Source: a virus
Lineage: Duplodnaviria; Caudoviricetes
Direction: 5' to 3' (one strand)
IMG/VR virus record: IMGVR_UViG_3300028558_000029
Span: 356-64,355 of that record
DNA length: 64,000 bases
A model generated the notes under the pieces. It made no database searches and had not been told where the DNA came from. It saw only the letters and a list, made by a program, of their open reading frames with translations. This document shows positions 35,982 through 59,455 of the stretch, piece after piece (position 1 is the first letter of the stretch; every line of letters starts with the position of its first letter). Position numbers and translations under genes: made by a program.

Positions 35982-36374
35982 TTAAACTAACTTAGATTTC
36001 TTCATCGGAACATTCCACCACCCAAGCTGCGCGGCCACATCGTCAACCGATCTGGCTATCGCAACGTGGTGGTGGAGTTCCATGAGCTGAGCGGTCATCA
36101 GAAGCTGCGATTCCGACAGCCTTCCCTTGGCCGACTTCAGTTCGATCCACCCGACGATAGGTTGCTTGGTGTCGGGATCGCTCCACATCAGGCACAGGTC
36201 CGGCATCCCAGCCCTCACCCCCATGCCTTTGAGTCGCTTGGCGGTTATCAGTGAGCGCTGCTCGCCGTTGGGGATATGGAACCACAGGACCGATTTGTGG
36301 AGCACCGCCGACAGGTAGCGCGCGACGGCGGAGTGGATGGCGGCCTCGCTCGGCCCCTTGCGTATCTGCACCAT
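35982..36374 (-). CDS. VRR-NUC domain nuclease
   Basis: SEAAIH...FHIPNG...GVRAGMPDL...WIELKS.KGRLSESQ. Confidence 0.9.
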   Translation of the reverse strand: MVQIRKGPSEAAIHSAVARYLSAVLHKSVLWFHIPNGEQRSLITAKRLKGMGVRAGMPDLCLMWSDPDTKQPIVGWIELKSAKGRLSESQLLMTAQLMELHHHVAIARSVDDVAAQLGWWNVPMKKSKLV

Positions 36375-36386
36375 GCAGTGTATATA
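36358..36386 (+). promoter_or_regulatory. sigma70-like promoter TTGCGT-17-TATATA with overlapping operator; predicts leaderless HTH mRNA
   Basis: -10 ends 6 nt before ATG 36393; operator TTGCGTATCTGCAC at 36358-36371. Confidence 0.55.
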
Positions 36387-36392
36387 GCGCAC

Positions 36393-36623
36393 ATGCTGAT
36401 CATTGACTACCTGATCGAAAACAAAATGTCGGCCGGTGGGCTGGTCAACTTGATAGAGGAGAGGACCGGCTACAAAGTCAGCCGGACAACCCTTACCCGG
36501 ATCATGCGTGGCGACGTTCGCGACCCGAGCGTCAATCTGGCAATCGCCATAGAGCAGGCCACGGATGGCGATGTAAGGGTGTGGGAGGTGGCTCCCCCAA
36601 ATATCGATGCACTTTCGCATTGA
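36393..36623 (+). CDS. XRE/Cro-like HTH regulator
   Basis: VSRTTLTRIMRG..RDPS..LA.AIE.AT.G.V. Confidence 0.85.
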   Translation: MLIIDYLIENKMSAGGLVNLIEERTGYKVSRTTLTRIMRGDVRDPSVNLAIAIEQATDGDVRVWEVAPPNIDALSH

Positions 36624-36648
36624 CAGGTTCGGTTGATCGGCGTATAAG
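36620..36648 (+). promoter_or_regulatory. sigma70 promoter of tRNA array TTGACA-17-TATAAG
   Basis: Near-consensus boxes 17 nt upstream of first tRNA. Confidence 0.8.
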
Positions 36649-36665
36649 CCGCCCTCACGAATTGA

Positions 36666-36741
36666 CGCGGATTGGAGCAGTGGCCAGCTCGCCAGCCTCA
36701 TAAGCTGGAGGTCGGTAGTTCGAATCTATCATCCGCCTCCA
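36666..36741 (+). tRNA. tRNA-Met(CAT), initiator-like
   Basis: C1 mismatch, fMet-like D arm, CCAGC-CTCATAA-GCTGG, CCA. Confidence 0.9.
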
Positions 36742-36757
36742 ATTCGATTGACAGTGA

Positions 36758-36831
36758 CGCGGGATCGTATAACGGTAGTATGACTGGCTCTGATCCAGTA
36801 GGCAGCGGATCAACACCGCTTCCCGTATCCA
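36758..36831 (+). tRNA. tRNA-Gln(CTG)
   Basis: ACTGG-CTCTGAT-CCAGT; atypical T-loop ATCAACA. Confidence 0.85.
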
Positions 36832-36835
36832 AAAT

Positions 36836-36960
36836 TTCCGGACCGAGAGGTGCGGAGACGGTGTGACAGCAGTGGCTCCGGCTAGACCGGTGGGGATCGC
36901 AAGGTCCGTCCCAGCGCACCAAAAAGAACGCTAGACGGCGGCGTAACAATGGCCTTCTTC
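36836..36960 (+). ncRNA. unidentified structured RNA inside tRNA array
   Basis: GAGA and GCAA tetraloop hairpins, CCGG-CTAGA-CCGG hairpin, GGTGTG/CGCACC closing stem. Confidence 0.4.
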
Positions 36961-36973
36961 AATTTTTGAATAT

Positions 36974-37057
36974 GGGTTGGTTTGCGGTGGTCCGCAGCCG
37001 TGTCTGTAAAACACGCGCCTATGGCAATGAGGGTTCGATTCCTCTCCCGACCCACCA
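36974..37057 (+). tRNA. tRNA-Tyr(GTA)
   Basis: CGTGT-CTGTAAA-ACACG, variable arm, CCA. Confidence 0.88.
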
Positions 37058-37063
37058 TTCAAT

Positions 37064-37137
37064 GCGGGGCTGGTATAGTGGCTGTGCCCTAGCCTTCCAA
37101 GCTAGAAACAGGGGTTCGATCCCCCTGCCCCGCTCCA
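37064..37137 (+). tRNA. tRNA-Gly(TCC)
   Basis: CTAGC-CTTCCAA-GCTAG, U73, CCA. Confidence 0.93.
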
Positions 37138-37140
37138 ATC

Positions 37141-37214
37141 GCGACCGTAATTCAATGGCAGAACGAGACGTTGCCAACGTCGGTACAGCGGTTCGATTCC
37201 GCTCGGTCGCTCCA
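37141..37214 (+). tRNA. tRNA-Gly(GCC)
   Basis: GACG-TTGCCAA-CGTC, U73, CCA. Confidence 0.93.
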
Positions 37215-37215
37215 T

Positions 37216-37276
37216 GGGGTTTCCTCTAGGGCCGTGAGGAATTATAGCGGCGCGATCTCCAGCCGCTTCCCCGCCA
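37216..37276 (+). ncRNA. 61-nt mini tRNA-like RNA ending GCCA
   Basis: GGGG/CCCC acceptor-like stem plus two 6-bp hairpins. Confidence 0.5.
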
Positions 37277-37282
37277 TTTCAT

Positions 37283-37361
37283 CAGCGTGTAGCTCAGTCT
37301 GGCCTAGAGTACCTGTCTCGGACACAGGGGGTCGGTGGTTCGAATCCACTCACGCTGACCA
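37283..37361 (+). tRNA. tRNA-Pro(CGG)
   Basis: CCTGT-CTCGGAC-ACAGG, C1-G72, CCA. Confidence 0.92.
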
Positions 37362-37367
37362 TTTCAT

Positions 37368-37444
37368 GCGCCCGTAGTCCAACTGGATAGGGCACCTGCC
37401 TACGAAGCAGGAGTGTGGGGGTTCGAATCCCTCCGGGCGCACCA
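37368..37444 (+). tRNA. tRNA-Arg(ACG)
   Basis: CCTGC-CTACGAA-GCAGG. Confidence 0.95.
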
Positions 37445-37447
37445 TTT

Positions 37448-37524
37448 CGACTCGTCGCCCAAATGGATAGGGCACCGCCCTCCGAAGGCGGAGGCTGGGA
37501 GTTCGACTCTCCCCGAGTCGGCCA
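37448..37524 (+). tRNA. tRNA-Arg(CCG)
   Basis: CCGCC-CTCCGAA-GGCGG. Confidence 0.93.
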
Positions 37525-37526
37525 AT

Positions 37527-37601
37527 GGGGCTGTGCTGATTGGATCAGCGCCGGGTTTCCTAAACCTGGACCAGTGGGTTCGAATCCCTCCGGCCTCGCC
37601 A
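37527..37601 (+). tRNA. tRNA-Arg(CCT)
   Basis: CGGGT-TTCCTAA-ACCTG. Confidence 0.88.
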
Positions 37602-37607
37602 CTCAAT

Positions 37608-37682
37608 GGTCTGCGAAGCATCTGGCGAGGCTGTCCCGCTGTCTACGGGACGAGACGGGTCCGATTCCCGTGCAGACCGCCA
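37608..37682 (+). tRNA. tRNA-Asp(GTC)
   Basis: TCCCG-CTGTCTA-CGGGA, G73. Confidence 0.88.
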
Positions 37683-37688
37683 TTCAAT

Positions 37689-37763
37689 GCCCGTGTGGTG
37701 CAAGGTAGACACGCTGCGTCTCAAAAACGCGCTCGCTCGGATCGTTACCGGGCACGGGCACCA
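37689..37763 (+). tRNA. tRNA-Leu(CAA), no long variable arm
   Basis: TGCGT-CTCAAAA-ACGCG, GGTAGAC D loop, A73. Confidence 0.82.
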
Positions 37764-37766
37764 ATT

Positions 37767-37841
37767 CTTCGGATGATGCAACGGTAGACATACACTGGGT
37801 CAGGCCAAGTCGTGTCGGTTCGACTCCGACTCCGAAGACCA
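37767..37841 (+). tRNA. tRNA-Leu(CAG), atypical anticodon arm, no long variable arm
   Basis: ACTGG-GTCAGGC-CAAGT with G.A mismatch; perfect acceptor and T arms. Confidence 0.7.
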
Positions 37842-37847
37842 ATTCAA

Positions 37848-37922
37848 CCGGGCGTGGGTCAGTGGCTGACCGCTAGTTTTGGGAACTAGTCCAGGCAAGT
37901 TCGATTCTTGCCGTCCGGACCA
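37848..37922 (+). tRNA. tRNA-Pro(TGG)
   Basis: CTAGT-TTTGGGA-ACTAG. Confidence 0.92.
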
Positions 37923-37929
37923 TTTAAAC

Positions 37930-38002
37930 GGGGAGCCCGCAGGGGCGGCGCTGTGTTTTGCAAACACGGACGGGGTCGGATCGTTACCGACGCTCTCCAC
38001 CA
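37930..38002 (+). tRNA. tRNA-Ala(TGC)
   Basis: G3.U70, TGTGT-TTTGCAA-ACACG. Confidence 0.87.
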
Positions 38003-38008
38003 ATTCAT

Positions 38009-38082
38009 GCTCCGATAGGCAACAGGCAGACCACTCGCCCTCAAAATGCGAGATGCTGACGGCTCGAATCCGTCTCGGAGTA
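38009..38082 (+). tRNA. tRNA-Leu(CAA) second copy, no encoded CCA
   Basis: TCGCC-CTCAAAA-TGCGA (C31.U39), GGCAGAC D loop. Confidence 0.75.
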
Positions 38083-38083
38083 C

Positions 38084-38159
38084 GCTCGGCTAGTTCAGTG
38101 GTAGAACGCGGCTCTCGTACAGCCGATGTCCGGGGTCCGATTCCTCCGGCCGAGCACCA
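38084..38159 (+). tRNA. tRNA-Thr(CGT)
   Basis: CGGCT-CTCGTAC-AGCCG. Confidence 0.88.
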
Positions 38160-38160
38160 T

Positions 38161-38235
38161 GCCGTCGTAGCTCAACAGGAAGAGCCCTGCCTTGTAAGCA
38201 GGATGATCGGGGTTCGAGGCCTCGCGTCGGCTCCA
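38161..38235 (+). tRNA. tRNA-Thr(TGT)
   Basis: CCTGC-CTTGTAA-GCAGG. Confidence 0.88.
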
Positions 38236-38241
38236 TTTCAT

Positions 38242-38319
38242 CCCCTCGTAGCCCAATTGGTAGAGGTGACTCGCTTAGAACGAGTAGGTTGGCAGTTCGA
38301 ATCTAGCCCGAGGGGACCA
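38242..38319 (+). tRNA. tRNA-Leu(TAG), no long variable arm
   Basis: ACTCG-CTTAGAA-CGAGT. Confidence 0.88.
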
Positions 38320-38325
38320 ATTCAC

Positions 38326-38400
38326 GCTGATATAGGCCAGTGGCAGACCGCGATCTTGGTAAGATCGATGACGATGGTCCGATTCCATCTATCAGCTCCA
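38326..38400 (+). tRNA. tRNA-Thr(GGT)
   Basis: CGATC-TTGGTAA-GATCG. Confidence 0.9.
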
Positions 38401-38406
38401 TTCAAC

Positions 38407-38475
38407 GGCAGTGCGAGGAAGGCGCTGGCTCTCATAAGGCCGGCAGCGCTGGGTCAGGTCCAGCCACTGTCACCA
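38407..38475 (+). tRNA. tRNA(CAT) Met/Ile2, D-arm-less
   Basis: 7-bp acceptor, GCTGGCT-CTCATAA-GGCCGGC, degenerate T loop, ACCA; 69 nt. Confidence 0.7.
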
Positions 38476-38481
38476 ATTCAC

Positions 38482-38573
38482 GGGCGGTGGCGTTGGACGC
38501 AAGAGGGCCTTATAAACCCTGCTAGCAGTAGATGACTGTTCTCGACACGGATCGTAACCGTGGCCGCCTACCA
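38482..38573 (+). tRNA. tRNA-Ile(TAT) with long variable arm
   Basis: AGGGC-CTTATAA-ACCCT; AGCAGT/ACTGTT extra arm; 92 nt. Confidence 0.75.
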
Positions 38574-38579
38574 TTCCAT

Positions 38580-38653
38580 GGGCATGTAGCTCAACGGCAG
38601 AGCCGGCGGTCGATAACCGTCAGACCGTGGTTCGACACCACGCTTGCCTACCA
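38580..38653 (+). tRNA. tRNA-Ile(GAT)
   Basis: GGCGG-TCGATAA-CCGTC (C33). Confidence 0.9.
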
Positions 38654-38660
38654 TTTCGAC

Positions 38661-38735
38661 GGGCGGTTAGCTCAGAAGAAGAGCGGGGTTCTTACAAAAC
38701 TCAGGTCGGGATTGCGAAATTCTCACCGCCTACCA
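38661..38735 (+). tRNA. tRNA-Val(TAC)
   Basis: GGGTT-CTTACAA-AACTC; atypical T loop. Confidence 0.85.
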
Positions 38736-38792
38736 ATTAACCCGCCCTCCCGTTCGGGATGAGCCAGTAGCGCTGTGGCGGCAGCAAGTTAT

Positions 38793-38866
38793 TCTCTCCT
38801 CTTTCAATGGCAGGAAGTTCGGCTGTTAACCGAATAATCGGGGTTCGAGTCCCTGGGAGAGAGCCA
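38793..38866 (+). tRNA. tRNA-Asn(GTT)
   Basis: TTCGG-CTGTTAA-CCGAA, U1-A72, G73. Confidence 0.92.
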
Positions 38867-38868
38867 AT

Positions 38869-38944
38869 CGCGCGTCCGTCTATCGGAATGGACATCTGGT
38901 TCTCAACCAGAAGATGTAGGGTTCGACTCCCTAACGCGCGTCCA
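38869..38944 (+). tRNA. tRNA-Glu(CTC)
   Basis: TCTGG-TTCTCAA-CCAGA. Confidence 0.9.
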
Positions 38945-38947
38945 TAT

Positions 38948-39022
38948 CGCCCTGTCGTCTATAGGAAGGACACGCCGCCTTTCAAGCGGGGAACCGGGAT
39001 TCGAATTCCCGCAGGGCGTCCA
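38948..39022 (+). tRNA. tRNA-Glu(TTC)
   Basis: CCGC-CTTTCAA-GCGG. Confidence 0.9.
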
Positions 39023-39030
39023 GTTTACAC

Positions 39031-39102
39031 ACTCTAGCCGTTGGATCGGAGCCGGGCCTTCTAATCCCAGCCGAGTGGGTTCGACCCCCACCTAGAGTTC
39101 CA
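39031..39102 (+). tRNA. tRNA-Arg(TCT)
   Basis: GGGC-CTTCTAA-TCCC; short D arm. Confidence 0.8.
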
Positions 39103-39107
39103 TTCGA

Positions 39108-39177
39108 CGGGGTGCGCTAGGAGCCGAGCGAGCCTTTGACACTCGCAGCGAGATTTCGATTATCTCCACCCCCACCA
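39108..39177 (+). tRNA. tRNA-Gln(TTG) (register ambiguous, GAC also in loop), reduced D arm
   Basis: CGAGC-CTTTGAC-ACTCG; GGGGTG/CACCCC acceptor; ACCA. Confidence 0.6.
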
Positions 39178-39180
39178 ATC

Positions 39181-39263
39181 GGACAGGTGACCTGAGCGGC
39201 CGAAGGCACGGACTCTTAATCCGTTATTCCACATCGTGGGTTCGAATCCCACCCTGTCCTCCA
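39181..39263 (+). tRNA. tRNA-Lys(CTT) with Ser/Tyr-like D arm and 11-nt variable region
   Basis: ACGGA-CTCTTAA-TCCGT; GAGCGGCCGAAGG D loop. Confidence 0.85.
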
Positions 39264-39268
39264 CCGAA

Positions 39269-39351
39269 ACACCGGAAGCGTAAACCCTGGCTGGGCTGGG
39301 AACGGCCTTTTAACCCGTGCGCAAGGGGTCCGATTCCCCTCCGGTGTTCCA
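39269..39351 (+). tRNA. tRNA-Lys(TTT) with expanded acceptor-to-D linker
   Basis: ACGGC-CTTTTAA-CCCGT; ACACCGG/CCGGTGT acceptor. Confidence 0.75.
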
Positions 39352-39380
39352 TATGTTAAATTCAGAACCAGGAGGTAGCG

Positions 39381-39932
39381 ATGATGACCGATCTTCCGCC
39401 ATCCCTGGTTCTGAATGCCGATTTCCGCCCCGTCCAATGCCTGCCGCTGTCGACGATGTCCTGGCAGGAAACCATCCACAACACAGTGGCGGGCGATGTC
39501 TCGGTGGTCGCCGAGTACGATATCGACGTTCACTCGCAGAACGTAACGATGCGGCTGCCTAGCGTCATCGCGCTCCGCGCGTTCGTCAAGCCACGGCTCC
39601 GGCCATCGCTGACCCGGCACAACCTTCTGGTCCTCCGGGACAAGTCGTGCTGCGCGTACTGCGGACAGCGCTTCCCGATGGACATGCTGACCTATGATCA
39701 CGTCGTGCCGCGCTCTCATGGCGGCCGGACGAGCTGGGAAAACATGGTTTCAGCGTGCGAGCGTTGCAACTCGACGAAGCTGGACCGGACGCCTGAAAAG
39801 GCCGGTATGCCCCTCCTGTGGAGGCCGCGCCTGCCGAGCATGGAGGAGCTGGCTCGCGCTGACTACTATCTGCGCCAGCGCAAGATTCACGAGACGTGGA
39901 AAGAGTTCCTGCCGTTCCTTGAGGCAGCCTGA
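39381..39932 (+). CDS. HNH endonuclease embedded in tRNA array
   Basis: LVLNAD.RP...RD...CAYCG...TYDHVVPRSHGG.TSWEN.V.AC..CN..K; AGGAGG SD. Confidence 0.93.
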   Translation: MMTDLPPSLVLNADFRPVQCLPLSTMSWQETIHNTVAGDVSVVAEYDIDVHSQNVTMRLPSVIALRAFVKPRLRPSLTRHNLLVLRDKSCCAYCGQRFPMDMLTYDHVVPRSHGGRTSWENMVSACERCNSTKLDRTPEKAGMPLLWRPRLPSMEELARADYYLRQRKIHETWKEFLPFLEAA

Positions 39933-39936
39933 GTTT

Positions 39937-40010
39937 ATCCGATAGGTGTTACGGTAGCATGGCTGGCTCCAACCCAGCTGGAGAGGGTTCAATTCCTTCA
40001 TCGGATGCCA
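39937..40010 (+). tRNA. tRNA-Trp(CCA)
   Basis: GCTGG-CTCCAAC-CCAGC, G73. Confidence 0.92.
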
Positions 40011-40013
40011 ATT

Positions 40014-40085
40014 GCATGGTGAACAGATGGTGAGTGGGCGAGCTGCAACCTCGCCAAAGCCCGTTCGATTCGGGCACCATGCTCC
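40014..40085 (+). tRNA. tRNA-Cys(GCA)
   Basis: GCGAG-CTGCAAC-CTCGC, U73; followed by CCC not CCA. Confidence 0.85.
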
Positions 40086-40171
40086 CACTACCCCTGCGGC
40101 CCTTCACCGGGGCGGCTTTCGCGACGAGTAGCGCTACGTCCATCGCCACGCTACCGCAGGGACTGGTTTAT

Positions 40172-40248
40172 GGTGACGTTGGCTGAGAGGCTATGGCGCT
40201 GGATTGTGAGTCCAGAAAACGTCGGTTCGATCCCGACACGTCACCCCA
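40172..40248 (+). tRNA. tRNA-His(GTG) with G-1:C73
   Basis: CTGGA-TTGTGAG-TCCAG; 8-bp acceptor. Confidence 0.92.
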
Positions 40249-40254
40249 ATTCAC

Positions 40255-40330
40255 GCGCTGCTAGCAATGGTGGTCCATGCGCCGGTCTGAAGAGCCGGAC
40301 ATCTCCGTTCGATCCGGAGGCAGCGCACCA
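40255..40330 (+). tRNA. tRNA-Phe(GAA)
   Basis: CCGGT-CTGAAGA-GCCGG. Confidence 0.9.
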
Positions 40331-40336
40331 TTCCAA

Positions 40337-40426
40337 GGGTGGTTTCGCAGGGCGGCCCCTGTCACGGTCCCGAAAACCGATGATAGCAGCGATGCTATGG
40401 AGATCGACACTACCAGCCACCCGCCA
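40337..40426 (+). tRNA. tRNA-Ser(CGA)
   Basis: CGGT-CCCGAAA-ACCG, long variable arm, G73. Confidence 0.8.
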
Positions 40427-40430
40427 ACAT

Positions 40431-40518
40431 GGAGAGCAGAGCCAGCCGGGCTGGACCGAGTTTGCTAAACTCGTGATGCCTGAAATGGCATGGGGTCCAA
40501 CTCCCCCACTCTCCGCCA
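40431..40518 (+). tRNA. tRNA-Ser(GCT)
   Basis: CGAGT-TTGCTAA-ACTCG, long variable arm, G73. Confidence 0.85.
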
Positions 40519-40521
40519 TTC

Positions 40522-40635
40522 ATGAAGAAGACCAAGCCCAGGAAGCCACGGATACGGTGGTCGGTGCGCCCGGTGACGAAAGTCATTCCGGACAAGCGCA
40601 ACCGGCCACCGCGTTTTCGCGCGCCTATCGTTTAA
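40522..40635 (+). CDS. 37-aa highly basic peptide (MKKTKPRKPRIRWSVRPVTKVIPDKRNRPPRFRAPIV)
   Basis: ATG 3 nt after last tRNA CCA; no SD; contains long hairpin. Confidence 0.5.
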   Translation: MKKTKPRKPRIRWSVRPVTKVIPDKRNRPPRFRAPIV

Positions 40636-40813
40636 ACTTAACGATCCGACGGCACTCCGCCAGGACAACATTGTCCTCCCCGACCCACCCGATCCGCTCA
40701 CGATTACAGGCCAGCTCGGTTTCAAACTGGCCTGTAGCCATGCTCCAGCAGTTTGGCTGCCGGGTGACCTCAGACCACCCGGCGCACCACACTATGAGCA
40801 ACGTGAAGGTCAC
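40625..40813 (-). CDS. small Cys-containing hypothetical protein
   Basis: GTGA-coupled to 40810 gene; hydrophobic N-terminus. Confidence 0.5.
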   Translation of the reverse strand: MTFTLLIVWCAGWSEVTRQPNCWSMATGQFETELACNRERIGWVGEDNVVLAECRRIVKFKR

Positions 40814-41613
40814 GCTTGCGAAGCGTTCAGGATGGCCATCTTGATGCTGGTCTGTGGCGACGGCTTCGGCCACTTGCGCGCAAGCAAAACCTCCCTGGTC
40901 AAGCCAAGGCTGGCCAGGGACTTTTCGACGTTGATCTTCCGGTACGGGACGGCAGTATTGCTGCTATTGTACCAACGGTAGACGCGGTCATAGCAGAGGC
41001 CGGTTTCTTCGTCCTTCTCCCGGAGAACCTTGACCACCTCGCCGTTCTTGTAGGCCGTGCCACTCTTCTTCGCGGCGACAACTATGGGATCGGCGTCGGG
41101 ACGTAGCCCACCGCCGTTGGCAAGCGCCTTGCGACGGTTGATAGAGGCCTGGAGTCGGCTCAGGTCGCTGTGTTTGTCACCGTGACGGCCGAAGGCAACT
41201 TCGTCCTCTGTCTTGCCAAGCGCCTTGAGCGACGCCTCGACATTGATCACGTCGCGCCACGTGCGATTACGGTAGACCTTGTCGTAGACAAGGCGGTCGA
41301 CAGAAGTAGATGGGGTGCCGCCGAACTTCTCGGTCATTACCCTGATCTCTTCGGCACTTTTCGGTGCTGGTCGGGCTTTTGGCGTGAGCGGAACGATCTT
41401 CTCAGGCTTTGTGGAGAGTGGTCCAACCGCAGCGATCACGGCCTCCTCGAAGCTGATTTCTCCGTATGAATTGATGTTGGCGACATCGACGGTTTCGGTA
41501 AGGACCTTGGTGAACCTAACCCCCTTGGCCTGTAGGGCGCGCAGCGCCCGCACCACCGCCGTCTCTGGCTCAAGTGTCTCAAAGCGAACGATCATCCGTA
41601 TTTGGTCACTCAT
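40810..41613 (-). CDS. hypothetical protein with duplicated YDxVYR...INVExSLxxLGxT module
   Basis: GGAGG SD before MSDQIR; internal repeat. Confidence 0.7.
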   Translation of the reverse strand: MSDQIRMIVRFETLEPETAVVRALRALQAKGVRFTKVLTETVDVANINSYGEISFEEAVIAAVGPLSTKPEKIVPLTPKARPAPKSAEEIRVMTEKFGGTPSTSVDRLVYDKVYRNRTWRDVINVEASLKALGKTEDEVAFGRHGDKHSDLSRLQASINRRKALANGGGLRPDADPIVVAAKKSGTAYKNGEVVKVLREKDEETGLCYDRVYRWYNSSNTAVPYRKINVEKSLASLGLTREVLLARKWPKPSPQTSIKMAILNASQA

Positions 41614-41685
41614 AATTTCCTCCAAATTGCAAACACAAAACCGATCGTCTTATATATCGGCGATCGTCTAAATGCAAGATAATTG

Positions 41686-41699
41686 TTGCATACATGCAC
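41686..41699. promoter_or_regulatory. operator copy (TTGCATACATGCAC) in divergent promoter region
   Basis: Matches repeated 14-bp palindrome; overlaps a -35-like TTGCAT. Confidence 0.6.
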
Positions 41700-41740
41700 T
41701 GGTCGATATATTGTGTTGCTCGACCTTGATGAGGGGACCG

Positions 41741-42214
41741 ATGCGAAATCTGCCTGAATTGAAGGATGTGGCAGCCACCTCCGACACCGATCTGGCTAAG
41801 CTGGATACGGACGCCATACTGGCGCTGCGAAGCGAGGCCGCCGAGAAAATCGAGTGGCTGGCCAAGGCGATCAATCGCCTTAACATGACGGTTCGCTCTC
41901 GCTACCAGAGCGAGCTGACCGCGCTGCGCCTGTCTTCCAAGAAGGACACCGGCACCGTCTCGTTCCAGAGCGGCGACTACATGGTCAAGTCGGAAATCGG
42001 CAAGACCGTGAAGTGGGACCAGGACAAGCTGGAGACGATTTACAAGGCCATCCTGATGGCGGGCGACCAGCCGTCGGAGTACATAAAGGTCACCTACTCG
42101 GTCGGCGAGCGCGAGTACAATGCGTGGCCGGACCTGATCAAGGCGAGGTTCGCGCCCGCCCGCACCGTCAAGCCGGGCGCTGAAAACATCACCGTGGAGA
42201 AGATCGAGGAATGA
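41741..42214 (+). CDS. conserved phage replication/recombination-module protein
   Basis: KDTGTV.F......K.VKWDQ..L...Y.V.E..Y.AWP; GAGGGG SD. Confidence 0.75.
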   Translation: MRNLPELKDVAATSDTDLAKLDTDAILALRSEAAEKIEWLAKAINRLNMTVRSRYQSELTALRLSSKKDTGTVSFQSGDYMVKSEIGKTVKWDQDKLETIYKAILMAGDQPSEYIKVTYSVGEREYNAWPDLIKARFAPARTVKPGAENITVEKIEE

Positions 42215-43056
42215 CCCTACGCATCGTATCGGCCGATGAGCGTCTGGCCCAGCTGACCAAGAAGGATACTGTCGCCATCTTTGGTCCGGTTTCGTCTGGG
42301 AAAACCAGCCTGCTCCGCACCATCGATCCGGCGACCGTGCTGGTAATCGACATGGAGTCGGGCCTGCGCTCGGTCAGTGACGTGCCTTTTGACACGGCGG
42401 CCGTCAAGTCGTTCATGGACTTCGCTGACCTGTCGGTGATCCTCGGCGGACCGAACCCGGCGCTGCGAGCGCAGGACCTTCTGTCCAGCGCCCACTATGC
42501 GGCGGCCATCGAACGGCAGGGCAAGATCGACACCAGTAAATACAACCTTCTGTTCGTCGACAGCCTGACCGAGCTGACGCGGCTGGCCGCCCAGTACGTC
42601 AAGACGCTGCCCGGCTCCATGGTCGAGAAAAAGAACAGCGGCGGGCAGATGATCGACGACAATTTCTTCGTCTATCGCGAGCTGGCCGGCGGCGTTCTGG
42701 GCTGCCTGCGCCACCTTCAGCACAATGCGCCGATGACCGTAGTCATGGTCGGCATCCTGGAACAGCGCACCGACGACTTCAATCGCGTGACGTGGCAGCC
42801 GCAGATGGCAGGCGCGGCGATCGGCCGCGAGCTGCCCGGCCTGCTCGACCACGTCTTCATCCTGAGCCAGTTCAACTATGAGAACGGTTCGTTTACACAT
42901 GCCCCCGGTATCGGTGAGCATCGCTGTTTCGTCACCCAGGTTCCCAATAGCTGGGGCCTGCCGGCCAAGAGTCGCAGCCAGCATCTTCTCGACGTTGTCG
43001 AGAAAGGCGACCTAGGCTACATCCTTTCCAAGATCAACGGAGGTAAGCAAGCATGA
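42211..43056 (+). CDS. AAA_24/Sak4-like ATPase
   Basis: GPVSSGKT, IDMESG, FVDSLT, AKSR motifs. Confidence 0.88.
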   Translation: MTLRIVSADERLAQLTKKDTVAIFGPVSSGKTSLLRTIDPATVLVIDMESGLRSVSDVPFDTAAVKSFMDFADLSVILGGPNPALRAQDLLSSAHYAAAIERQGKIDTSKYNLLFVDSLTELTRLAAQYVKTLPGSMVEKKNSGGQMIDDNFFVYRELAGGVLGCLRHLQHNAPMTVVMVGILEQRTDDFNRVTWQPQMAGAAIGRELPGLLDHVFILSQFNYENGSFTHAPGIGEHRCFVTQVPNSWGLPAKSRSQHLLDVVEKGDLGYILSKINGGKQA

Positions 43057-43724
43057 CTGGTTTCATGAATTTCAACGATGCCGGCCCGCAATACGAGATG
43101 GGGACCGTCATTCCTGACGGCACCCTGGCGCGCGTAACGCTTCATATCGTCGACGGCCCGGTCCCCGGTCCATCCCAGACCGATGGCGCGATCCTGCACC
43201 CATCCAAGACCAGCGACGTGCTCCAGCTGCGCACCGAGTTCACCGTGGTCGCCGGTCCCTTCACCAAGCGCAAGTTCTGGCCGAACTTCACCATCTCCGG
43301 CGGAGAGCAGGACGATCATGGCGTGTCGAAGGGCTGGAACATCAGCAAGGCGCAGATCAGGGCGATCATCGAGTCGGCCTTCAATTTCCGTCCCGACGAC
43401 ATGTCGGCCGTGGCGCAGCAGCGCCGCCAGCTCAACGGCTTCCGGGCCCTTGAGGGTCTGGAGTTTGCTGTGAAGATCGGGATCGAGAAGGGCACCGGCC
43501 AGTACAAGGACAAGAACCGCCTGACCGCCATCATCACGCCAGACGACAAGAACTACGGACTGGTCATGGGCACGGCGACGATGACGCCGGGCGGCTGGAC
43601 CATCCAGAGCCAGCCGGCTCCGGCCCCTGTCCAGGGTGGCGTGATGGCTCCGGTGAACAATGGCGGCGCTGCCGGTGGCGGCGCAGTGCCGCTGGCGCAG
43701 AAGCCGGCATGGCTGAACGACTGA
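43053..43724 (+). CDS. putative ssDNA-binding protein
   Basis: Follows Sak4-like ATPase; GPF.KRKFW, YKDKN, C-terminal KPAW. Confidence 0.65.
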   Translation: MTGFMNFNDAGPQYEMGTVIPDGTLARVTLHIVDGPVPGPSQTDGAILHPSKTSDVLQLRTEFTVVAGPFTKRKFWPNFTISGGEQDDHGVSKGWNISKAQIRAIIESAFNFRPDDMSAVAQQRRQLNGFRALEGLEFAVKIGIEKGTGQYKDKNRLTAIITPDDKNYGLVMGTATMTPGGWTIQSQPAPAPVQGGVMAPVNNGGAAGGGAVPLAQKPAWLND

Positions 43725-43939
43725 CGGAGAACGAATGGCAGGCCCGGACCACCGAACAGGCCGGGCTTGCCATTGGTGAGTGGCTGCTGGCCGGGAACAA
43801 GCTGAAATGGCGGGTAGAGCAACTTACAAGAGCCGATCTGGCCGCTATGGCAAGCAACGCCATAAGCCGGTACATCCAGCTGCGCCAGGATCGGGAGTCC
43901 GAAGGAAAGCTGTCCCCCTGGTTCGAACAGGATGTGTAG
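43709..43939 (+). CDS. hypothetical protein
   Basis: Coupled ORF. Confidence 0.65.
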   Translation: MAERLTENEWQARTTEQAGLAIGEWLLAGNKLKWRVEQLTRADLAAMASNAISRYIQLRQDRESEGKLSPWFEQDV

Positions 43940-44067
43940 TCTGCGGCTGGGAATGCGGGGGCATCGCCTATCAGAAGCCGAACACGGCCAATGCCCCCAC
44001 CTACCATTTCTGCTCCATGGTGTGCAGCGACATCGCCATGCTTTCGATCAATGACAGGGGTCAATTC

Positions 44068-44262
44068 ATGCCGAACGAGCTGACCAGTATGGAGGCCAAG
44101 GCAATTCGGTTCGCCAGGGCCTACTTCGCCGACGCCCTGGCCACGACTGGGCTGATGGAGCCATTCGCCAATGCCAACGCGCAGCAGATCGACACGCTGA
44201 TCGAGGCGTGCTGGCGCGGGTGCCGGCGGGGGATGGCAGAGCAATCGGAGGTGCCTTTCTGA
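44068..44262 (+). CDS. DUF6511-like protein (may extend upstream to a CxxC/CxxxC segment)
   Basis: LT..E..AI......LIEAC; C-terminal EVPF. Confidence 0.55.
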   Translation: MPNELTSMEAKAIRFARAYFADALATTGLMEPFANANAQQIDTLIEACWRGCRRGMAEQSEVPF

Positions 44263-44489
44263 TGGCAAAATTCCGTGAAGTCCGTGACATCGCGCTTCGA
44301 ACGCTCGCCGATCACGGCGTCGACGACTATTCGATCGAGCCGACCGGCAGCACTCACTTCCGATTGCGATGGGAGCACAATGGCAAGAAGCTGGCCTACA
44401 TGCTGGCCGCATCGCCATCCGATCGACGTGTAAACAAAACTATTCGGGCCGACCTTCGGCGAATGATGAGGGGGATTAATTATGAATGA
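44262..44489 (+). CDS. HicA-like small protein
   Basis: GSTHFRL.......ASPSDRR pattern. Confidence 0.5.
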   Translation: MAKFREVRDIALRTLADHGVDDYSIEPTGSTHFRLRWEHNGKKLAYMLAASPSDRRVNKTIRADLRRMMRGINYE

Positions 44490-44673
44490 ACACAAGCCTT
44501 CTGCTGAAGAAATTCTTCAGAACGAACGCCATGGCTACGACGATGCGATTATCGCCAAAATGGTTGAGGACTTCGCTTTTCGTTGGGGACCGAAACCAAA
44601 AATACGAATTCGTAGAATTTGTTAGCAGCCTTGCGGCTATTCTTTATGTAGTCAATACAAAAGCGTCCAGGCA

Positions 44674-45435
44674 GTGATCGACACTAATCACGGCAGCGGC
44701 TACGTGCCACAGGCCCCAGCCCTGTCCCCAACAGAGCGTGTAAACATAGCCATAGACAGCGCTCTGGTTTACCGCCAAAGCCTCCAGACGCCGCGCGCCT
44801 ATCTGGGCGGGTCCAGGCTCGGCGAGCCATGCTCCAGGCTGCTGTGCTACGAACTGATGGGCGTGCCGGCCGACGAGGGCAGGGAGTTTACCGGCCGGAC
44901 TCTGCGCATATTCGAGGTTGGGCACCGGTTCGAAGCGATGATGGCCGACTGGCTGACGCAAGCCGGCTTCGGTCTGCGCATCGCCAAGCGAGATGGGAGT
45001 CAGTTCGGCTTCAGCATCGCGGGCGGCAAGATCGCCGGACACATCGATGGTGTGATCACCGATGGGCCTGTCTTGGAGGTTCCGTACCCGATCGGCTGGG
45101 AACACAAGTCGCTCGGCGACAAGGGGTGGTCGAAGATCGCCAACCACGGCCTGCGCCTGGGAAACGAAACCTATTTCGGTCAGGTCCAGATTTACATGGC
45201 CTACATGGACTTGCCAGCCTTCCTGTTCACCGCGATCAACAAGAACGACGAGTCTATCTACGCCGAGATCGTTCGTTTCGATCCGGCTGCGGCCCAAGCC
45301 CTGTCAGACAAGGCGGTGACCATCGTCAGCGCTGTCGAGCGCGGCGAGCTGCTGTCCAGGATCGCCAGCCAACGCGATTTTTACAAATGCCGCATGTGCA
45401 ATCATCAGGACCGCTGCTGGTCTGATCCAAACTAG
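44674..45435 (+). CDS. Cas4-like PD-(D/E)xK exonuclease
   Basis: YLGGSRLG.PC.R, GHIDG, EHKS, QVQIYM, C..C.....CW. Confidence 0.85.
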   Translation: MIDTNHGSGYVPQAPALSPTERVNIAIDSALVYRQSLQTPRAYLGGSRLGEPCSRLLCYELMGVPADEGREFTGRTLRIFEVGHRFEAMMADWLTQAGFGLRIAKRDGSQFGFSIAGGKIAGHIDGVITDGPVLEVPYPIGWEHKSLGDKGWSKIANHGLRLGNETYFGQVQIYMAYMDLPAFLFTAINKNDESIYAEIVRFDPAAAQALSDKAVTIVSAVERGELLSRIASQRDFYKCRMCNHQDRCWSDPN

Positions 45436-45438
45436 CCA

Positions 45439-45467
45439 TTGCATATCTGCACCGGATAGTGTAATAT
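45439..45467 (+). promoter_or_regulatory. promoter TTGCAT-17-TAATAT with overlapping operator TTGCATATCTGCAC
   Basis: Intergenic, upstream of GAGG SD and ATG 45490. Confidence 0.65.
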
Positions 45468-47627: not shown

Positions 47628-48261
47628 GATTCATCCCTGCTACCGCTGCCCTCTCCGGAAGGGTTGCCCCGATCGAGAGCGCTGGGCACAGAAAGTCCAA
47701 GGTCTCGGACTGACGGCAGCGCGCTTCAAATGCCCCCGCCTCGGCTTTCAGCTTCGCCTTGGTCGTCGCATCGAAATCCGCGTTCCGGTCAGAGACACGA
47801 AATACCAACACGATGGCGTTGCATGGAAGCGTGCGAAGGCCACGATCAGCGCTGTCCAGTCCTTGCGGGATCGGGCAGAAACTTTTCGTATTCGCATGGA
47901 GATTGCGGAAGACAACCTTACCAAGGTTTGTATTCAACGAGACCAAGCCAAAGCCGAACTCGCCGCTACTTCCAAATGGCTGGGCGAACTTCTCGCCATC
48001 ATCCACCGAGACGGCGGGCACTATTCCCAAGAGCGCGGCTGGCAGAAATCGGTCAACGACGCGCACCTGATCTGGGCAGACCTTATTGGCAAGGCGGAAG
48101 AACTCGCCGCCCTCAAGTCCCGCCCCGAGGGGAGAGTGGTGACGGCGGAGGCGTTGCAAGACGCCATGCAGTTCATCGCCGGCAAGGGATTGAAGGTCGA
48201 ATTGAACGATGCTCGTCGAGTGCTGGAACTCCTCGGACCCATCCTCTCAAGCATGGACTGA
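47617..48261 (+). CDS. hypothetical protein
   Basis: GGAGG SD; LLAIIHRDGGHY motif. Confidence 0.6.
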   Translation: MGVRIHPCYRCPLRKGCPDRERWAQKVQGLGLTAARFKCPRLGFQLRLGRRIEIRVPVRDTKYQHDGVAWKRAKATISAVQSLRDRAETFRIRMEIAEDNLTKVCIQRDQAKAELAATSKWLGELLAIIHRDGGHYSQERGWQKSVNDAHLIWADLIGKAEELAALKSRPEGRVVTAEALQDAMQFIAGKGLKVELNDARRVLELLGPILSSMD

Positions 48262-48263
48262 CC

Positions 48264-59340: not shown

Positions 59341-59341
59341 A

Positions 59342-59436: not shown

Positions 59437-59455
59437 CATCTGGGGAGATCAATCG

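Follow-up and report, generated by a model that had tools for sequence, protein, structure and literature searches.

A block of tRNA genes in a soil phage

The record IMGVR_UViG_3300028558_000029 is a virus of 64,355 bp with a G+C content of 60% and a CheckV completeness of 100. The phage looks lytic, and its host is probably alphaproteobacterial; an earlier sequence-only reading took it for a podophage, and family searches of the phage open reading frames (ORFs) returned no tail-type marker. We analyzed a stretch of 64,000 nucleotides of this record (the window), on the plus strand of which a tRNA gene array takes up 6% of the genome; all features described below lie on that strand. With default settings, ARAGORN called 27 tRNA genes between positions 36666 and 40330 and none elsewhere on either strand of the window. 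The Rfam model RF00005 detected, at its gathering score of 29 bits, 19 units under standard and 22 under permissive filtering, adding Gln-CTG and Val-TAC, which default ARAGORN had missed, so that the union comprised 29 units. At -ps90, ARAGORN added Arg-TCT and Ser-GCT, at -ps80 a second CAT unit, a TAT unit and a Lys-TTT unit, and at -ps70 it touched 40337-40426; Gln-TTG was spotted by eye, which brought the total to 36. The sequence-only reading, which had proposed about 36 same-strand tRNA genes, was thus borne out, with 7 of the 36 units called by relaxed thresholds or hand parsing only. The D-stem-less CAT unit, Arg-TCT, Gln-TTG and Lys-TTT are candidate tRNA genes. At the gathering score 14 of the 36 units had no Rfam tRNA match, and only six scored at least 55 bits; many units might score low under standard tRNAscan-SE. 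A rigid cloverleaf-plus-CCA geometric scan found 28 units on the plus strand of the array, one on its minus strand and seven in the other 60 kb (both strands), compared with a mean of 0.115 in 200 shuffles. Six or seven of the seven acceptor pairs were present in all 36 units (35 units from the cloverleaf table; Lys-TTT with 7/7 after its start was reset to 39269). The array is real and consists of 27 to 36 tRNA genes in one block.

Unless stated otherwise, the following units were called by default ARAGORN, and bit scores are those of the Rfam tRNA model. The first unit, tRNA-Met CAT (36666..36741; 57.9 bits), has a C1 x C72 mismatch and U73. It is followed by Gln CTG (36758..36831), which Rfam matched at 36758-36828 with 44.3 bits and ARAGORN called only at -ps90; this unit has a C1 x A72 mismatch and the T-loop ATCAACA. 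Tyr GTA (36974..37057), with a long variable arm, was matched in Rfam only by the tRNA-Sec model (38.3 bits, below its cut-off). Then come Gly TCC (37064..37137; 54.3 bits), Gly GCC (37141..37214; 52.9 bits), Pro CGG (37283..37361; 59.4 bits) and three Arg units, ACG (37368..37444; 64.3 bits), CCG (37448..37524; 60.2 bits; 78% like ACG) and CCT (37527..37601; 32.4 bits; 75% like Arg TCT). No Rfam match was obtained for Asp GTC (37608..37682; cloverleaf MFE, z -2.07), Leu CAA (a) (37689..37763; T-loop ATCGTTA) and Leu CAG (37767..37841), the latter two being without a long variable arm. Pro TGG (37848..37922; 51.4 bits) precedes Ala TGC (37930..38002), which likewise had no Rfam match and shows a cloverleaf MFE (z -2.20), the acceptor GGGGAGC/GCTCTCC and the T-loop ATCGTTA. 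Leu CAA (b) (38009..38083; 37.1 bits) is without an encoded CCA and abuts Thr CGT (38084..38159; 40.0 bits), after which Thr TGT (38161..38235; 48.7 bits), Leu TAG (38242..38319; 36.7 bits; bulged T stem) and Thr GGT (38326..38400; 55.5 bits) are found.

The 69-nt CAT unit (38407..38475), called by ARAGORN only at -ps80 and by the geometric scan, belongs to the weakest evidence class. It has no D stem and a three-armed MFE, together with 7/7 acceptor pairs, A73 and CCA, and is a candidate Met tRNA, or Ile2 tRNA if modified. The TAT-anticodon unit (38482..38573; ARAGORN only at -ps80; no Rfam match) has a long variable arm, A73 and the variable-loop motif AGAU. Ile GAT (38580..38653; 50.2 bits) is followed by Val TAC (38661..38735), found by Rfam (38661-38732; 43.1 bits) and at none of the ARAGORN thresholds tried, and by Asn GTT (38793..38866; 51.9 bits), Glu CTC (38869..38944; 43.5 bits) and Glu TTC (38948..39022; 46.1 bits). 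Arg TCT (39031..39102; ARAGORN -ps90; no Rfam match) has a weak anticodon stem (3/5). In the case of the Gln TTG candidate (39108..39177), which has a C1 x C72 mismatch and A73, the geometric scan and a cloverleaf MFE agreed with the identification by eye, and neither ARAGORN nor Rfam gave a call. Lys CTT (39181..39263; 83 nt; 47.8 bits) has an 11-nt variable region; other arrays also hold long Lys tRNAs resembling it. The Lys TTT candidate (39269..39351), partially called at -ps80, matched by the tRNA-Sec model (20.5 bits) and found by the geometric scan, has an enlarged D region. Trp CCA (39937..40010; 47.9 bits) and Cys GCA (40014..40085; tRNA-Sec model only, 30.5 bits; MFE z -2.85; no encoded CCA) are followed by His GTG (40173..40248; 55.0 bits) and Phe GAA (40255..40330; no Rfam match; cloverleaf MFE, z -2.19). 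The array ends with the Ser CGA candidate (40337..40426), which ARAGORN reported only at -ps70 and mis-called there and whose five-arm cloverleaf MFE (z -1.99) has an acceptor of 8 bp, and Ser GCT (40431..40518; ARAGORN -ps90; geometric scan; MFE z -2.71); both have a long variable arm.

Interruptions and flanking signals

The run is interrupted by four gaps and one gene. Gap A (36832..36973, 142 nt) is non-tRNA, with no ARAGORN call at -ps60, no Rfam match and a fold z-score of -0.06. Gap B (37215..37282, 68 nt) has a three-way-junction MFE (z -0.70) and a GCCA end and is possibly a remnant tRNA-like unit, which neither ARAGORN nor Rfam called. Gap C (38736..38792, 57 nt; z +0.06), also non-tRNA, contains a weak terminator-like hairpin at 38772-38785, and gap D (40086..40172, 87 nt) forms an 8-bp long-range stem around two hairpins, with no family match and a z-score of -1.46, its folding being equalled or beaten by 18 of 200 shuffles. 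The four non-tRNA segments that had been described as structured exist, but their folding does not set them apart from shuffled sequences. The gene, correctly recognized as HNH, encodes an endonuclease of 183 amino acids (39381..39932; phrog_16726, E 1.6e-27; PDB HNH matches) and has AGGAGG 7 nt upstream of its start codon. Relatives with 38-43% identity lie within tRNA arrays in four of seven IMG/VR loci, and the protein is a resident endonuclease of a family repeatedly found in such arrays.

Upstream of the array, a promoter-like TTGACA-17 nt-TATAAG can be read at 36620..36648, 17 nt before the first tRNA. The near-consensus hexamers noted earlier are thus present, but a consensus promoter scan, whose counts in the region were at chance level, did not list the site because it demands T at the sixth -10 position, and this conserved final T is absent from TATAAG. 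The stop codon of a small ORF (36276..36623) overlaps the -35 hexamer. Its product has a weak Cro-like helix-turn-helix (Pfam HTH_3, E 3.3e-4; 21.1 bits, below the cut-off of 23 bits) and is a putative regulator of the array. About 90 nt past the last tRNA, the consensus scan found a weak terminator-like hairpin with a T-rich tail (40610..40633); such hairpins occurred at chance level (6 found, 5.6 expected). Within the array, CCA is encoded in 34 of the 36 units, 29 of the 35 inter-unit gaps are at most 10 nt long, and TTC occurs within 5 nt 3' of the CCA in 18 of the 34 CCA-encoding units, in agreement with the encoded CCA and short AATTC-like spacers described before.

Decoding capacity and tRNA types

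The 36 units carry 34 distinct anticodons (P ~0.0006 or less in random draws). They read 49 of the 61 sense codons under strict wobble rules and 57 if U34 reads four ways, which corresponds to 82.8 to 97.5% of the 15,786 phage codons. All 20 amino acids are represented when the full set of 36 is accepted; Ser depends on weakly called units. With this proviso, the proposed near-complete and almost non-redundant tRNA pool holds. The array has no G34 tRNA for GCC and GTC, the commonest phage codons, and leaves TTA and three Ser codons without a decoder, so that the autonomy of the phage is incomplete.

Certain bases of the acceptor stem and the discriminator position serve as tRNA identity elements, and those expected were read from the sequence: G3:U70 in Ala; G-1 facing C73 in His; U73 in the two Gly units and in Cys; G73 in Asp, Trp and the two Ser units; A73 in the four Leu units, in Tyr and in the two Pro units, which also have C1:G72; G1-C2 in the three Thr units; and unpaired positions 1 and 72 in the two Gln units. 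About one-third of the units are non-standard, with a swapped T-loop, a short-arm Leu, a long-arm UAU or reduced or enlarged D regions. We rejected decay as their origin, since the identity elements are kept and both the T-loop ATCGTWA and the long-arm tRNA(UAU) recur in many phage arrays. The element CGGATCGTWACCG-N10-CCA stood at the 3' end of an ARAGORN tRNA, with at least 19 anticodons, in 99 of the 121 IMG/VR matches listed, five more of which lay inside arrays; in bacterial and archaeal genome contigs, 7 among the 120 matches listed had a tRNA context. The long-arm UAU class shows covariation at 18 of 19 predicted pairs. A covariance model of 19 long-arm UAU tRNAs from other phage arrays, built without the unit at 38482..38573, matched that unit with 64.2 bits (E 1.3e-13), and the next-best match in the window had 30.3 bits. 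Judged from their sequences, the odd units are recurrent phage-array tRNA types and not decayed genes. The Arg ACG/CCG and Arg CCT/TCT pairs are paralogous, which indicates that local gene duplication, combined with changes of the anticodon, enlarged the array.

Single units also have close counterparts elsewhere: Val-TAC is 93.3% identical over 75 nt to a copy in a complete 98.8-kb phage, and Asp-GTC is 86% identical over 72 nt to an array copy in a Propylenella MAG contig. Among 60 loci surrounding relatives of the neighboring AAA_24 gene, none contained a tRNA, so the array does not come with the replication module as a trait of its lineage. According to an excerpt of a 2019 survey, genomes with clusters of at least 15 tRNAs span 72 to 617 kb, and among cluster carriers the number of clustered tRNAs correlates negatively with genome length (PMC6409571). 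Set against the range in that excerpt, the array appears unusual for a genome this small; however, an unrelated complete IMG/VR phage of 65,633 bp has 30 ARAGORN tRNAs compared with 27 here. The negative correlation, as far as the excerpt goes, weakens the view that arrays of this size characterize phages with much larger genomes. Phage tRNA arrays of this kind are known, and the present one stands at the extreme without being the only such case.

Possible explanations of the array

A bacterial tRNA array misjoined to a phage contig during assembly could mimic this arrangement, as tRNA genes attract mis-joins and many joints to tRNAs of other organisms were seen at 80% likeness; moreover, the record is classed as 'linear' and has no terminal repeats. 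The array and both junctions are, however, reproduced in other assemblies. X2 contigs covered 37033-38737 with no differences and 38732-40530 with one, and one of them extends beyond the left end of the array. An independent JGI contig (L097), obtained from a different sample, spans the right junction, covering 40120-45451 with 99.8% identity. In 13 runs, 50% or more of the sampled words were present; one of these runs may be the source sample, and all may represent one campaign, because they share one year and one habitat. Given also that the G+C content of the array (0.59) fits that of its flanks (0.58-0.63) and that the record is complete according to CheckV, an assembly artefact is extremely improbable.

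The classical explanation of phage tRNAs, as presented in an excerpt of PMC10264068, is compensation for codon usage: the tRNAs would chiefly serve codons poorly decoded by the host and speed late-gene translation, with no general replacement pool. The set does decode AGA, AGG, AUA, CUA and UUG, which are infrequent in this genome of 60% G+C and probably also in the host, but no rare codon has extra tRNA copies, and there is nearly one of each anticodon. The commonest codons of the phage are decoded as well, namely, CUG (54% of Leu), CCG (54% of Pro), AAG (84% of Lys), GAG (66% of Glu) and CAG (82% of Gln), for which decoders should be plentiful in a G+C-rich host. We therefore regard compensation as the chief role as improbable. 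Only a little less doubtful is a mobile tRNA module spreading with the HNH gene, in which some 27 to 29 genes would be functional and the weakly scoring units and the gaps would be copies in decay that benefit the phage little. The HNH relatives within arrays, the Val and Asp tRNAs common to otherwise unrelated phages, the tRNA-free AAA_24 loci, the remnant-like gap B with its CCA end and gaps A-D without detectable function would fit such a module. The weak units nevertheless keep their acceptor pairs, discriminator and CCA and supply exactly the missing anticodons (Ser, AGA, AAA, the CAA-reading Gln and AUA), the TAT unit falls into a class that is conserved and shows covariation, and across the runs only few single-base differences and no disrupted copies were seen.

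We consider it reasonably likely that the array, judged by its sequence features, is a working tRNA operon of the phage. A single transcript of ~3.9 kb would start at the sigma-70-like site and run across the 36 units and the HNH gene, and host RNase P and endonucleases would cleave the A/T-rich spacers of 2-8 nt. Trimming would halt at the encoded CCA, so that most units would need no CCA addition; in a scan of ~50 phage ORFs, no gene for tRNA repair, CCA addition or tRNA modification was found. Host aminoacyl-tRNA synthetases would charge the products, given that these retain their main identity elements. With about one tRNA per anticodon and a coverage of 83 to 97.5% of codon usage, translation of the phage would depend little on host tRNAs. 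The benefit would arise as the host pool falls during infection, by host shut-off or by tRNA-cutting defences. Excerpts of three papers describe how phage tRNAs are able to save an infection from such defences (PMC10264068, PMC11555353, PMC11464382), and by analogy with those phages the array may replace host tRNAs destroyed by nucleases.

Gene content of the tRNA array

With default settings, ARAGORN called 27 tRNA genes between 36666 and 40330, all on the plus strand, and left the window otherwise empty on both strands. The Rfam tRNA model, applied at its gathering score of at least 29 bits, found 19 units with standard filters; permissive filtering of the 4.2-kb region raised this to 22. 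Rfam, unlike ARAGORN at default, recognized Gln-CTG at 36758 (44.3 bits) and Val-TAC at 38661 (43.1 bits). At standard thresholds the union of the two programs is 29 genes for 19 amino acids, with Ser absent. Relaxing ARAGORN to -ps90 added Arg-TCT and Ser-GCT, and -ps80 added a second CAT unit (38407-38475, without a D stem), a TAT unit (38482-38573) and a partial Lys-TTT (39269-39351), all on the plus strand. Two further plus-strand candidates are Ser-CGA at 40337-40426, which was touched at -ps70 and whose identity was read from the sequence, and Gln-TTG at 39108-39177, read by eye only. The full set consists of 36 units with 34 distinct anticodons, CAA and CAT each occurring twice. The sequence-only reading had counted about 36 same-strand tRNAs, which agrees with the full set and compares with 27 genes by ARAGORN default and 29 with Rfam. 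Its claim that all 20 amino acids are covered stands for 19 of them at standard thresholds; Ser enters through weak calls only.

Calls made by ARAGORN below -ps80 included many opposite-strand and overlapping ones and were discarded as evidence, and for this reason we wrote a rigid cloverleaf test. It required an acceptor stem of 7 bp with at least 6 pairs followed by a discriminator and CCA, a T arm of 5+7+5 with at least 4 pairs, and an anticodon arm of 5+7+5 with at least 4 pairs, U33 and a purine at position 37. The test accepted 28 units on the plus strand of the array and one on its minus strand (3.9 kb), and seven in the remaining 60 kb on both strands, whereas 200 shuffled versions of the array gave 0.115 on average (maximum 2). 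Five of the seven units called only at relaxed thresholds or by eye passed it (CAT, TAT, Gln-TTG, Lys-TTT and Ser-GCT; the other two are Arg-TCT and Ser-CGA), and several good genes failed only because of a bulge or an absent CCA. Standard finders miss between a quarter and a third of the units in such arrays, with 27 of the 36 reported here by ARAGORN and 22 by Rfam.

The sequence-only reading described an encoded CCA in most units, together with short spacers, and both were found. CCA ends 34 of the 36 units and is absent from Leu-CAA(b) and Cys, and 29 of the 35 inter-unit gaps are at most 10 nt long, the six longer ones measuring 16, 142, 68, 57, 585 (with an HNH gene) and 87 nt. In 18 of the 34 units with CCA, TTC follows within 5 nt, mostly as ATTCA, TTCAA or TTTCA. 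A promoter-like sequence, TTGACA-17 nt-TATAAG, lies at 36620-36648 and is a plausible, putative promoter of the array. The near-consensus promoter described earlier is thus readable in the sequence, but it is missing from a consensus promoter scan, because the last base of its -10 hexamer is G, and the totals of that scan around the array are at chance level. No leader reading frame or switch was found ahead of the array, where 17 nt separate the -10 hexamer from the first tRNA at 36666. On the 3′ side, a weak terminator-like hairpin is present at 40610, followed by a gene on the opposite strand (40810-41625). A 37-codon frame on the plus strand (40522-40635), starting 4 nt past the last tRNA, would encode a very basic peptide; it has no obvious ribosome-binding site and stops inside the terminator-like hairpin.

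Four non-tRNA segments interrupt the run at 36832-36973, 37215-37282, 38736-38792 and 40086-40172 (gaps A to D). Their presence had been noted before, but their description as structured is unsupported, as the folding z scores against dinucleotide shuffles were -0.06, -0.70, +0.06 and -1.46, respectively. The four segments matched no Rfam family, gave no ARAGORN call at -ps60 and showed no likeness to 1,590 tRNAs of other arrays. Gap B folds into a small three-way junction with a GCCA end and may be a remnant tRNA unit. A long inverted repeat around the array was not found.

Decoding capacity was calculated with the codon usage of 54 predicted ORFs (15,786 codons). Under strict wobble the 27 default genes read 39 of the 61 sense codons, corresponding to 70% of usage, and the 29-gene set with U34 reading four ways in family boxes reads 50 (91%). 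For the 36 units the values are 49 sense codons (82.8%) with strict wobble and 57 (97.5%) with four-way U34, which supports the proposed near-complete set. TCC, TCT, TCA and TTA are the codons left unread by the 36-unit set, and a G34 tRNA is lacking for GCC and GTC, the commonest codons of the phage.

Integrity of the array and its unusual tRNAs

The viral record has 64,355 bases, a CheckV completeness of 100% and no terminal repeats, and its G+C content is about 0.60 across the window, array included. At least half of the sampled words of the array were present in 13 rhizosphere metagenome runs, one of which may be the source sample; all 13 date from one year and therefore possibly belong to one campaign. 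Contigs of run X2 matched 37033-38737 without any difference and 38732-40530 with a single one; a further contig of that run led from the array into its left flank. A JGI contig from another sample matched 40120-45451 at 99.8% identity and links the array to the replication genes. With the array bridged to its flanks in this way, a chimeric assembly is very unlikely. The runs listed as containing the array included no RNA data set. Depth peaks at 37392-37523 and 39240-39371 were rejected as a phage signal, since the reads come from tRNAs of other organisms at 80% likeness.

In the Rfam comparison (RF00005, 29 bits), 22 of the 36 units reach the gathering score, six of them with at least 55 bits, and 14 stay below it, three of the latter matching only tRNA-Sec, also below its cut-off. 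On these scores the array might look half made of pseudogenes, which would speak against the sequence-only reading, but three lines of evidence oppose decay. One is the state of the tRNA bodies. Acceptor stems have 6 or 7 of 7 pairs in all 36 units, including Lys-TTT, which reaches 7 of 7 with its start reset to 39269. Ala has G3:U70, and His has an encoded G-1 facing C73. The discriminator is U73 in both Gly and in Cys, G73 in Asp, Trp and both Ser, and A73 in all four Leu, in Tyr and in both Pro, which also share C1:G72; all three Thr start with G1-C2, and position 1:72 is unpaired in both Gln. These positions are elements read by synthetases, and each fits the anticodon of its unit.

The anticodons form the next line. 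Thirty-four distinct anticodons among 36 units are not expected from random draws out of 45 or 61 anticodons (P of at most 0.0006), and the same draws give P values of 0.0008 to 0.012 for the 26 distinct anticodons of the 27-gene set. The decoders missing from the strong units are those supplied by the weak ones. The remaining line is recurrence elsewhere. Val-TAC has a counterpart with 93.3% identity over 75 nt in a complete 98.8-kb phage, and Asp-GTC, for which Rfam gave no match, shares 86% identity over 72 nt with its counterpart in an array on a contig of a Propylenella metagenome-assembled genome (MAG). For five units, namely CAT without a D stem, Arg-TCT, Gln-TTG, Lys-TTT and Ser-CGA, other arrays gave no comparable support. 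Lys tRNAs with an enlarged variable region, 83-88 nt in length, were seen at 39181-39263 and in several other phage arrays (L213, 3374-3456; L190, 1011-1094; L136, 12382-12468).

Three units, Leu-CAA(a), Ala and the TAT unit, have a T arm of the form CGG-ATCGTWA-CCG (plus strand; 37736-37752, 37975-37991 and 38545-38561, respectively), in which A54...U58 replaces the usual T54...A58. We searched for this swapped T-loop with the pattern CGGATCGTWACCG-N10-CCA. Among the 121 IMG/VR matches listed (119 loci, L109-L227), 99 form the 3′ end of an ARAGORN tRNA, with 19 different anticodons, and five more lie within arrays (104 of 121 in total, 86%); 17 have no tRNA context. Among the 120 matches listed for bacterial and archaeal contigs, taken from one genome per species, 113 have no tRNA context, and the seven that do (6%) are all in array-bearing contigs. 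Short Leu tRNAs are usual in the arrays with swapped T-loops, the median length of Leu-CAA being 77 nt (n=33).

The TAT unit falls into a class of long-arm UAU tRNAs characterized by a length of 88-97 nt, the UAU anticodon, A73 and a variable-arm hairpin with an AGAU loop. ARAGORN reported "Ile(tat)" in 26 distinct calls in the sampled arrays (27 table rows, one record being present twice), 19 of which are at least 88 nt long. An alignment of these 19 with the TAT unit showed three features invariant in all 20: TTATA in the core of the anticodon loop, GA in the centre of the AGAU variable loop, and the ACCA end. The T of the AGAU loop was present in at least 90% of the rows. Compensatory changes occurred at 18 of 19 predicted pairs, the variable-arm stem included. 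A covariance model built from the 19 long-arm tRNAs, with the TAT unit left out, scored the TAT unit at 64.2 bits (rough E value 1.3e-13), the next best score in the window being 30.3 bits. Across 100 other loci, the class scored 56.7-80.3 bits in 23 hits, six of them outside the training set, and the next score was 49.7 bits. Members of the class were found at L111, L112, L114, L124, L125, L138, L142, L150, L161, L172, L179, L184, L186, L197, L199, L200, L201, L218 and L226. In a table that repeats a few records, an exact AGAT was present in the variable region of 16 of 21 long TAT tRNAs, and elsewhere in two of 21 Leu-TAA, one of 23 Leu-TAG, one of 43 Ser-TGA and none of 35 Tyr tRNAs. The model alignment matches the AGAU variable loop with the GAU anticodon loop of tRNA-Ile. 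The AGAU arm may be a second, mimic anticodon arm, or the body may be of the Leu/Ser type and recode AUA.

A full-text search, judged by titles and the openings of abstracts, yielded no paper on a phage long-variable-arm tRNA-Ile(UAU), and the supplements of the nearest papers may hold some. The allo-tRNAs of Mukai et al. (2017) share the long variable arm and UAU with the TAT unit, but the latter has a 7/5 layout, and not 8/4 or 9/3, with A73 and the conserved AGAU loop. The accessible text of PMC5389517 describes 8/4 and 9/3 allo-tRNAs in which UAU predominates, as well as 8/4 tRNA-Ser and tRNA-His in tRNA clusters of alphaproteobacterial phages. In our array, the minimum free energy fold of Ser-CGA (40337-40426) has an 8-bp acceptor and a weak 4-bp T stem. 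The V-arm tRNA-Ile(UAU) of nematodes, which according to the accessible part of PMC4300185 is leucylated in vitro, likewise has a long arm and UAU; the TAT unit differs in its 7/5 layout, A73 and AGAU.

Genome context and relatives

One HNH gene had been placed within the tRNA run, and it is indeed found there, at 39381-39932 on the plus strand between Lys-TTT and Trp, with a strong Shine-Dalgarno sequence and unambiguous matches to HNH families. In four of the seven IMG/VR loci that contain its relatives (38-43% identity), these are located within or next to tRNA arrays; among the four are two contigs of 81-91 kb with 29 tRNAs. The 29-tRNA array at L102/L103, next to an HNH relative, bears only a generic tRNA likeness to that of the window. 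The tRNA regions of T4 and T5 reportedly contain free-standing homing endonucleases (SegB, HNH genes) among their tRNA genes. The array resembles them in its embedded endonuclease gene and differs in that its HNH family also has chromosomal relatives in Alphaproteobacteria, at about 50% identity.

Elsewhere, the genome encodes a major head protein (phrog_9953), a phage lysozyme, a VRR-NUC nuclease, an AAA_24 ATPase, a primase-helicase and a GcrA-like regulator. Most structural proteins had no match, and family searches for sheath, tube and tape-measure proteins, which would indicate the tail type, were all negative. Relatives of the AAA_24 ATPase at 45-47% identity belong to Alphaproteobacteria, and an alphaproteobacterial host is therefore likely. 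All 60 IMG/VR loci around AAA_24 relatives lack tRNA genes, which argues that the array was not inherited with the replication module. Several further plus-strand genes were observed. The 312-aa product of 47664-48602 combines a GcrA-like segment with a helix-turn-helix of the LuxR/sigma-70 region 4 type, a combination that hints at Alphaproteobacteria as hosts and at phage control over the cell-cycle promoters of the host. The gene at 4039-5556 encodes a UDP-galactopyranose mutase (Pfam GLF, E value 3.7e-68) with an N-terminal extension of 120 residues. At 59294-59662, the C-terminal half of the product resembles Lar-type restriction alleviation proteins (TIGR03655, 34.7 bits; cut-off 39.6), making this a possible anti-restriction gene. 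The gene at 60497-61630 encodes a divergent PurA-family protein of 377 aa. Neither the PurA nor the PurZ model recognizes it above its cut-off, and its best PDB matches all carry the name adenylosuccinate synthetase. The protein may be a PurZ-like enzyme that serves 2-aminoadenine DNA; neither DatZ nor MazZ was detected as a partner.

The array DNA had no counterpart covering more than 5% of it among 50,697 phage records. Single-protein pattern scans of IMG/VR with AAA_24 and HNH gave no match, and alignment searches with AAA_24 and its 78% relative retrieved only IMG/VR relatives of at most 29% identity. In JGI metagenomes, AAA_24 alignment recovered only the same phage again and relatives at 34-36%. 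The nearest cultured match is Rhizobium phage RHph_X2_26, whose primase is 38.7% identical over half its length and for which no tRNA is annotated in the 48.5 kb examined. An array order of Thr-Thr-Thr-Leu(-Leu-Leu)-Val-Ile-Lys... is common to L300 (the Propylenella sp. MAG contig), L348, L207 and the complete IMG/VR phage G002 (locus L124). The Thr-Thr-Thr-Leu order occurs in phages of 65.6 and 98.8 kb and on alphaproteobacterial MAG contigs, and the Val (93%) and Asp (86%) tRNAs of the window are closest to those of arrays with this order.

Cluster M mycobacteriophages, on which Pope and colleagues reported in 2014, are said to combine mid-sized siphophage genomes with unusually large tRNA repertoires. 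The accessible text of Morgado and Vicente 2019 (PMC6409571) defines a tRNA cluster as at least 15 tRNA genes at two or more per kb and describes clusters of 15-37 genes with about 2-10 genes per kb, eight of them with all 20 isotypes, carried almost exclusively by tailed phages. Under that definition the array is a cluster in a virus genome, with 27-36 genes in 3,853 bp (7.0-9.3 per kb). According to the same text, clusters of at least 15 tRNAs occur only in genomes of 72-617 kb, whereas the present genome has 64.4 kb, and among carriers the number of clustered tRNAs falls with rising genome length. As far as the accessible parts of the papers go, alphaproteobacterial phages with about 24 tRNAs have 130-215 kb (PMC5648845), and the M2 phages Estes and Aziz have 83.4-83.6 kb and 21 tRNA genes (PMC7953290); compared with the latter, the window's genome is shorter by about 19 kb, carries more tRNAs, belongs to another host phylum and shows no sequence relation.

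Completeness was checked for 15 of the 119 array- or motif-bearing IMG/VR contigs, of which three are complete and 12 are fragments of 6-73%. The complete phages are G002 (65,633 bp, direct terminal repeats, 30 ARAGORN tRNAs), G011 (98,782 bp, at least 28 tRNAs) and G009 (73 kb), which has no tRNA match at an E value of 1e-9 and whose motif match is a chance hit. G002 resembles the window in G+C content (0.61), size class, a long-arm tRNA(UAU) of 90 nt, a tRNA with a swapped T-loop and a PurA-family gene (24892-25899; 42% identical to 60497-61630), and its 30 tRNAs lie in 4.2 kb, all with a CCA end. It differs in that only three of 29 proteins matched, the tRNA order is another one, the array is at the genome end and no HNH relative was detected. 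The number of tRNAs per kb of genome is 0.42-0.56 here and 0.46 in G002. The view that such an array is unusual for a small genome fits the 72-kb minimum of the survey text, but G002 at 65.6 kb qualifies it; the companion statement that large arrays typify larger phages is weakened by the fall of tRNA number with length among the carriers in that text. This phage is at the extreme of tRNA density, but has company in G002.

Function of the array

On balance we think that the array is probably a functional, nearly self-sufficient tRNA supply operon. By analogy with work on other phages, it might replace tRNAs destroyed by defence nucleases. An artefact of assembly is hardly credible in view of the independent contigs that join the array to its flanks. 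It is also unlikely that the array represents a selfish, mosaic and partly decayed module; the low Rfam scores of many units could be read in this way, but the preserved acceptor stems and identity positions, the nearly non-redundant anticodons and the recurrence of odd features elsewhere stand against decay. Codon compensation, in which the array would mainly provide tRNAs for codons poorly decoded by the host, we regard as quite unlikely.

The supply operon could also be more than a spare copy of the host set. That it is a phage-specific "stealth" set, in which about one-third of the units are body types kept across phage arrays, is a tentative reading that we consider doubtful. The bodies in question (swapped T-loop, short-arm Leu and long-arm UAU) may be almost absent from cellular tRNA genes and could let the phage tRNAs evade host tRNA nucleases or do without host modification enzymes. 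For the UAU tRNA, a mimic anticodon arm presented to the synthetase could make the host lysidine enzyme unnecessary for reading AUA; charging with Leu or Ser, and thereby recoding of AUA, would be the alternative.

Together with G002, this phage shifts the lower size limit for a near-complete tRNA set from the 72 kb given in the accessible text of PMC6409571 to about 64 kb. The array takes up 6% of a small genome, an investment that argues for strong selection, in some soil phage-host pairs, for independence from the tRNA pool of the host. The swapped T-loop and the long-arm tRNA(UAU) may matter more than the number of tRNAs, and both are accessible to in vitro charging and tRNA sequencing.
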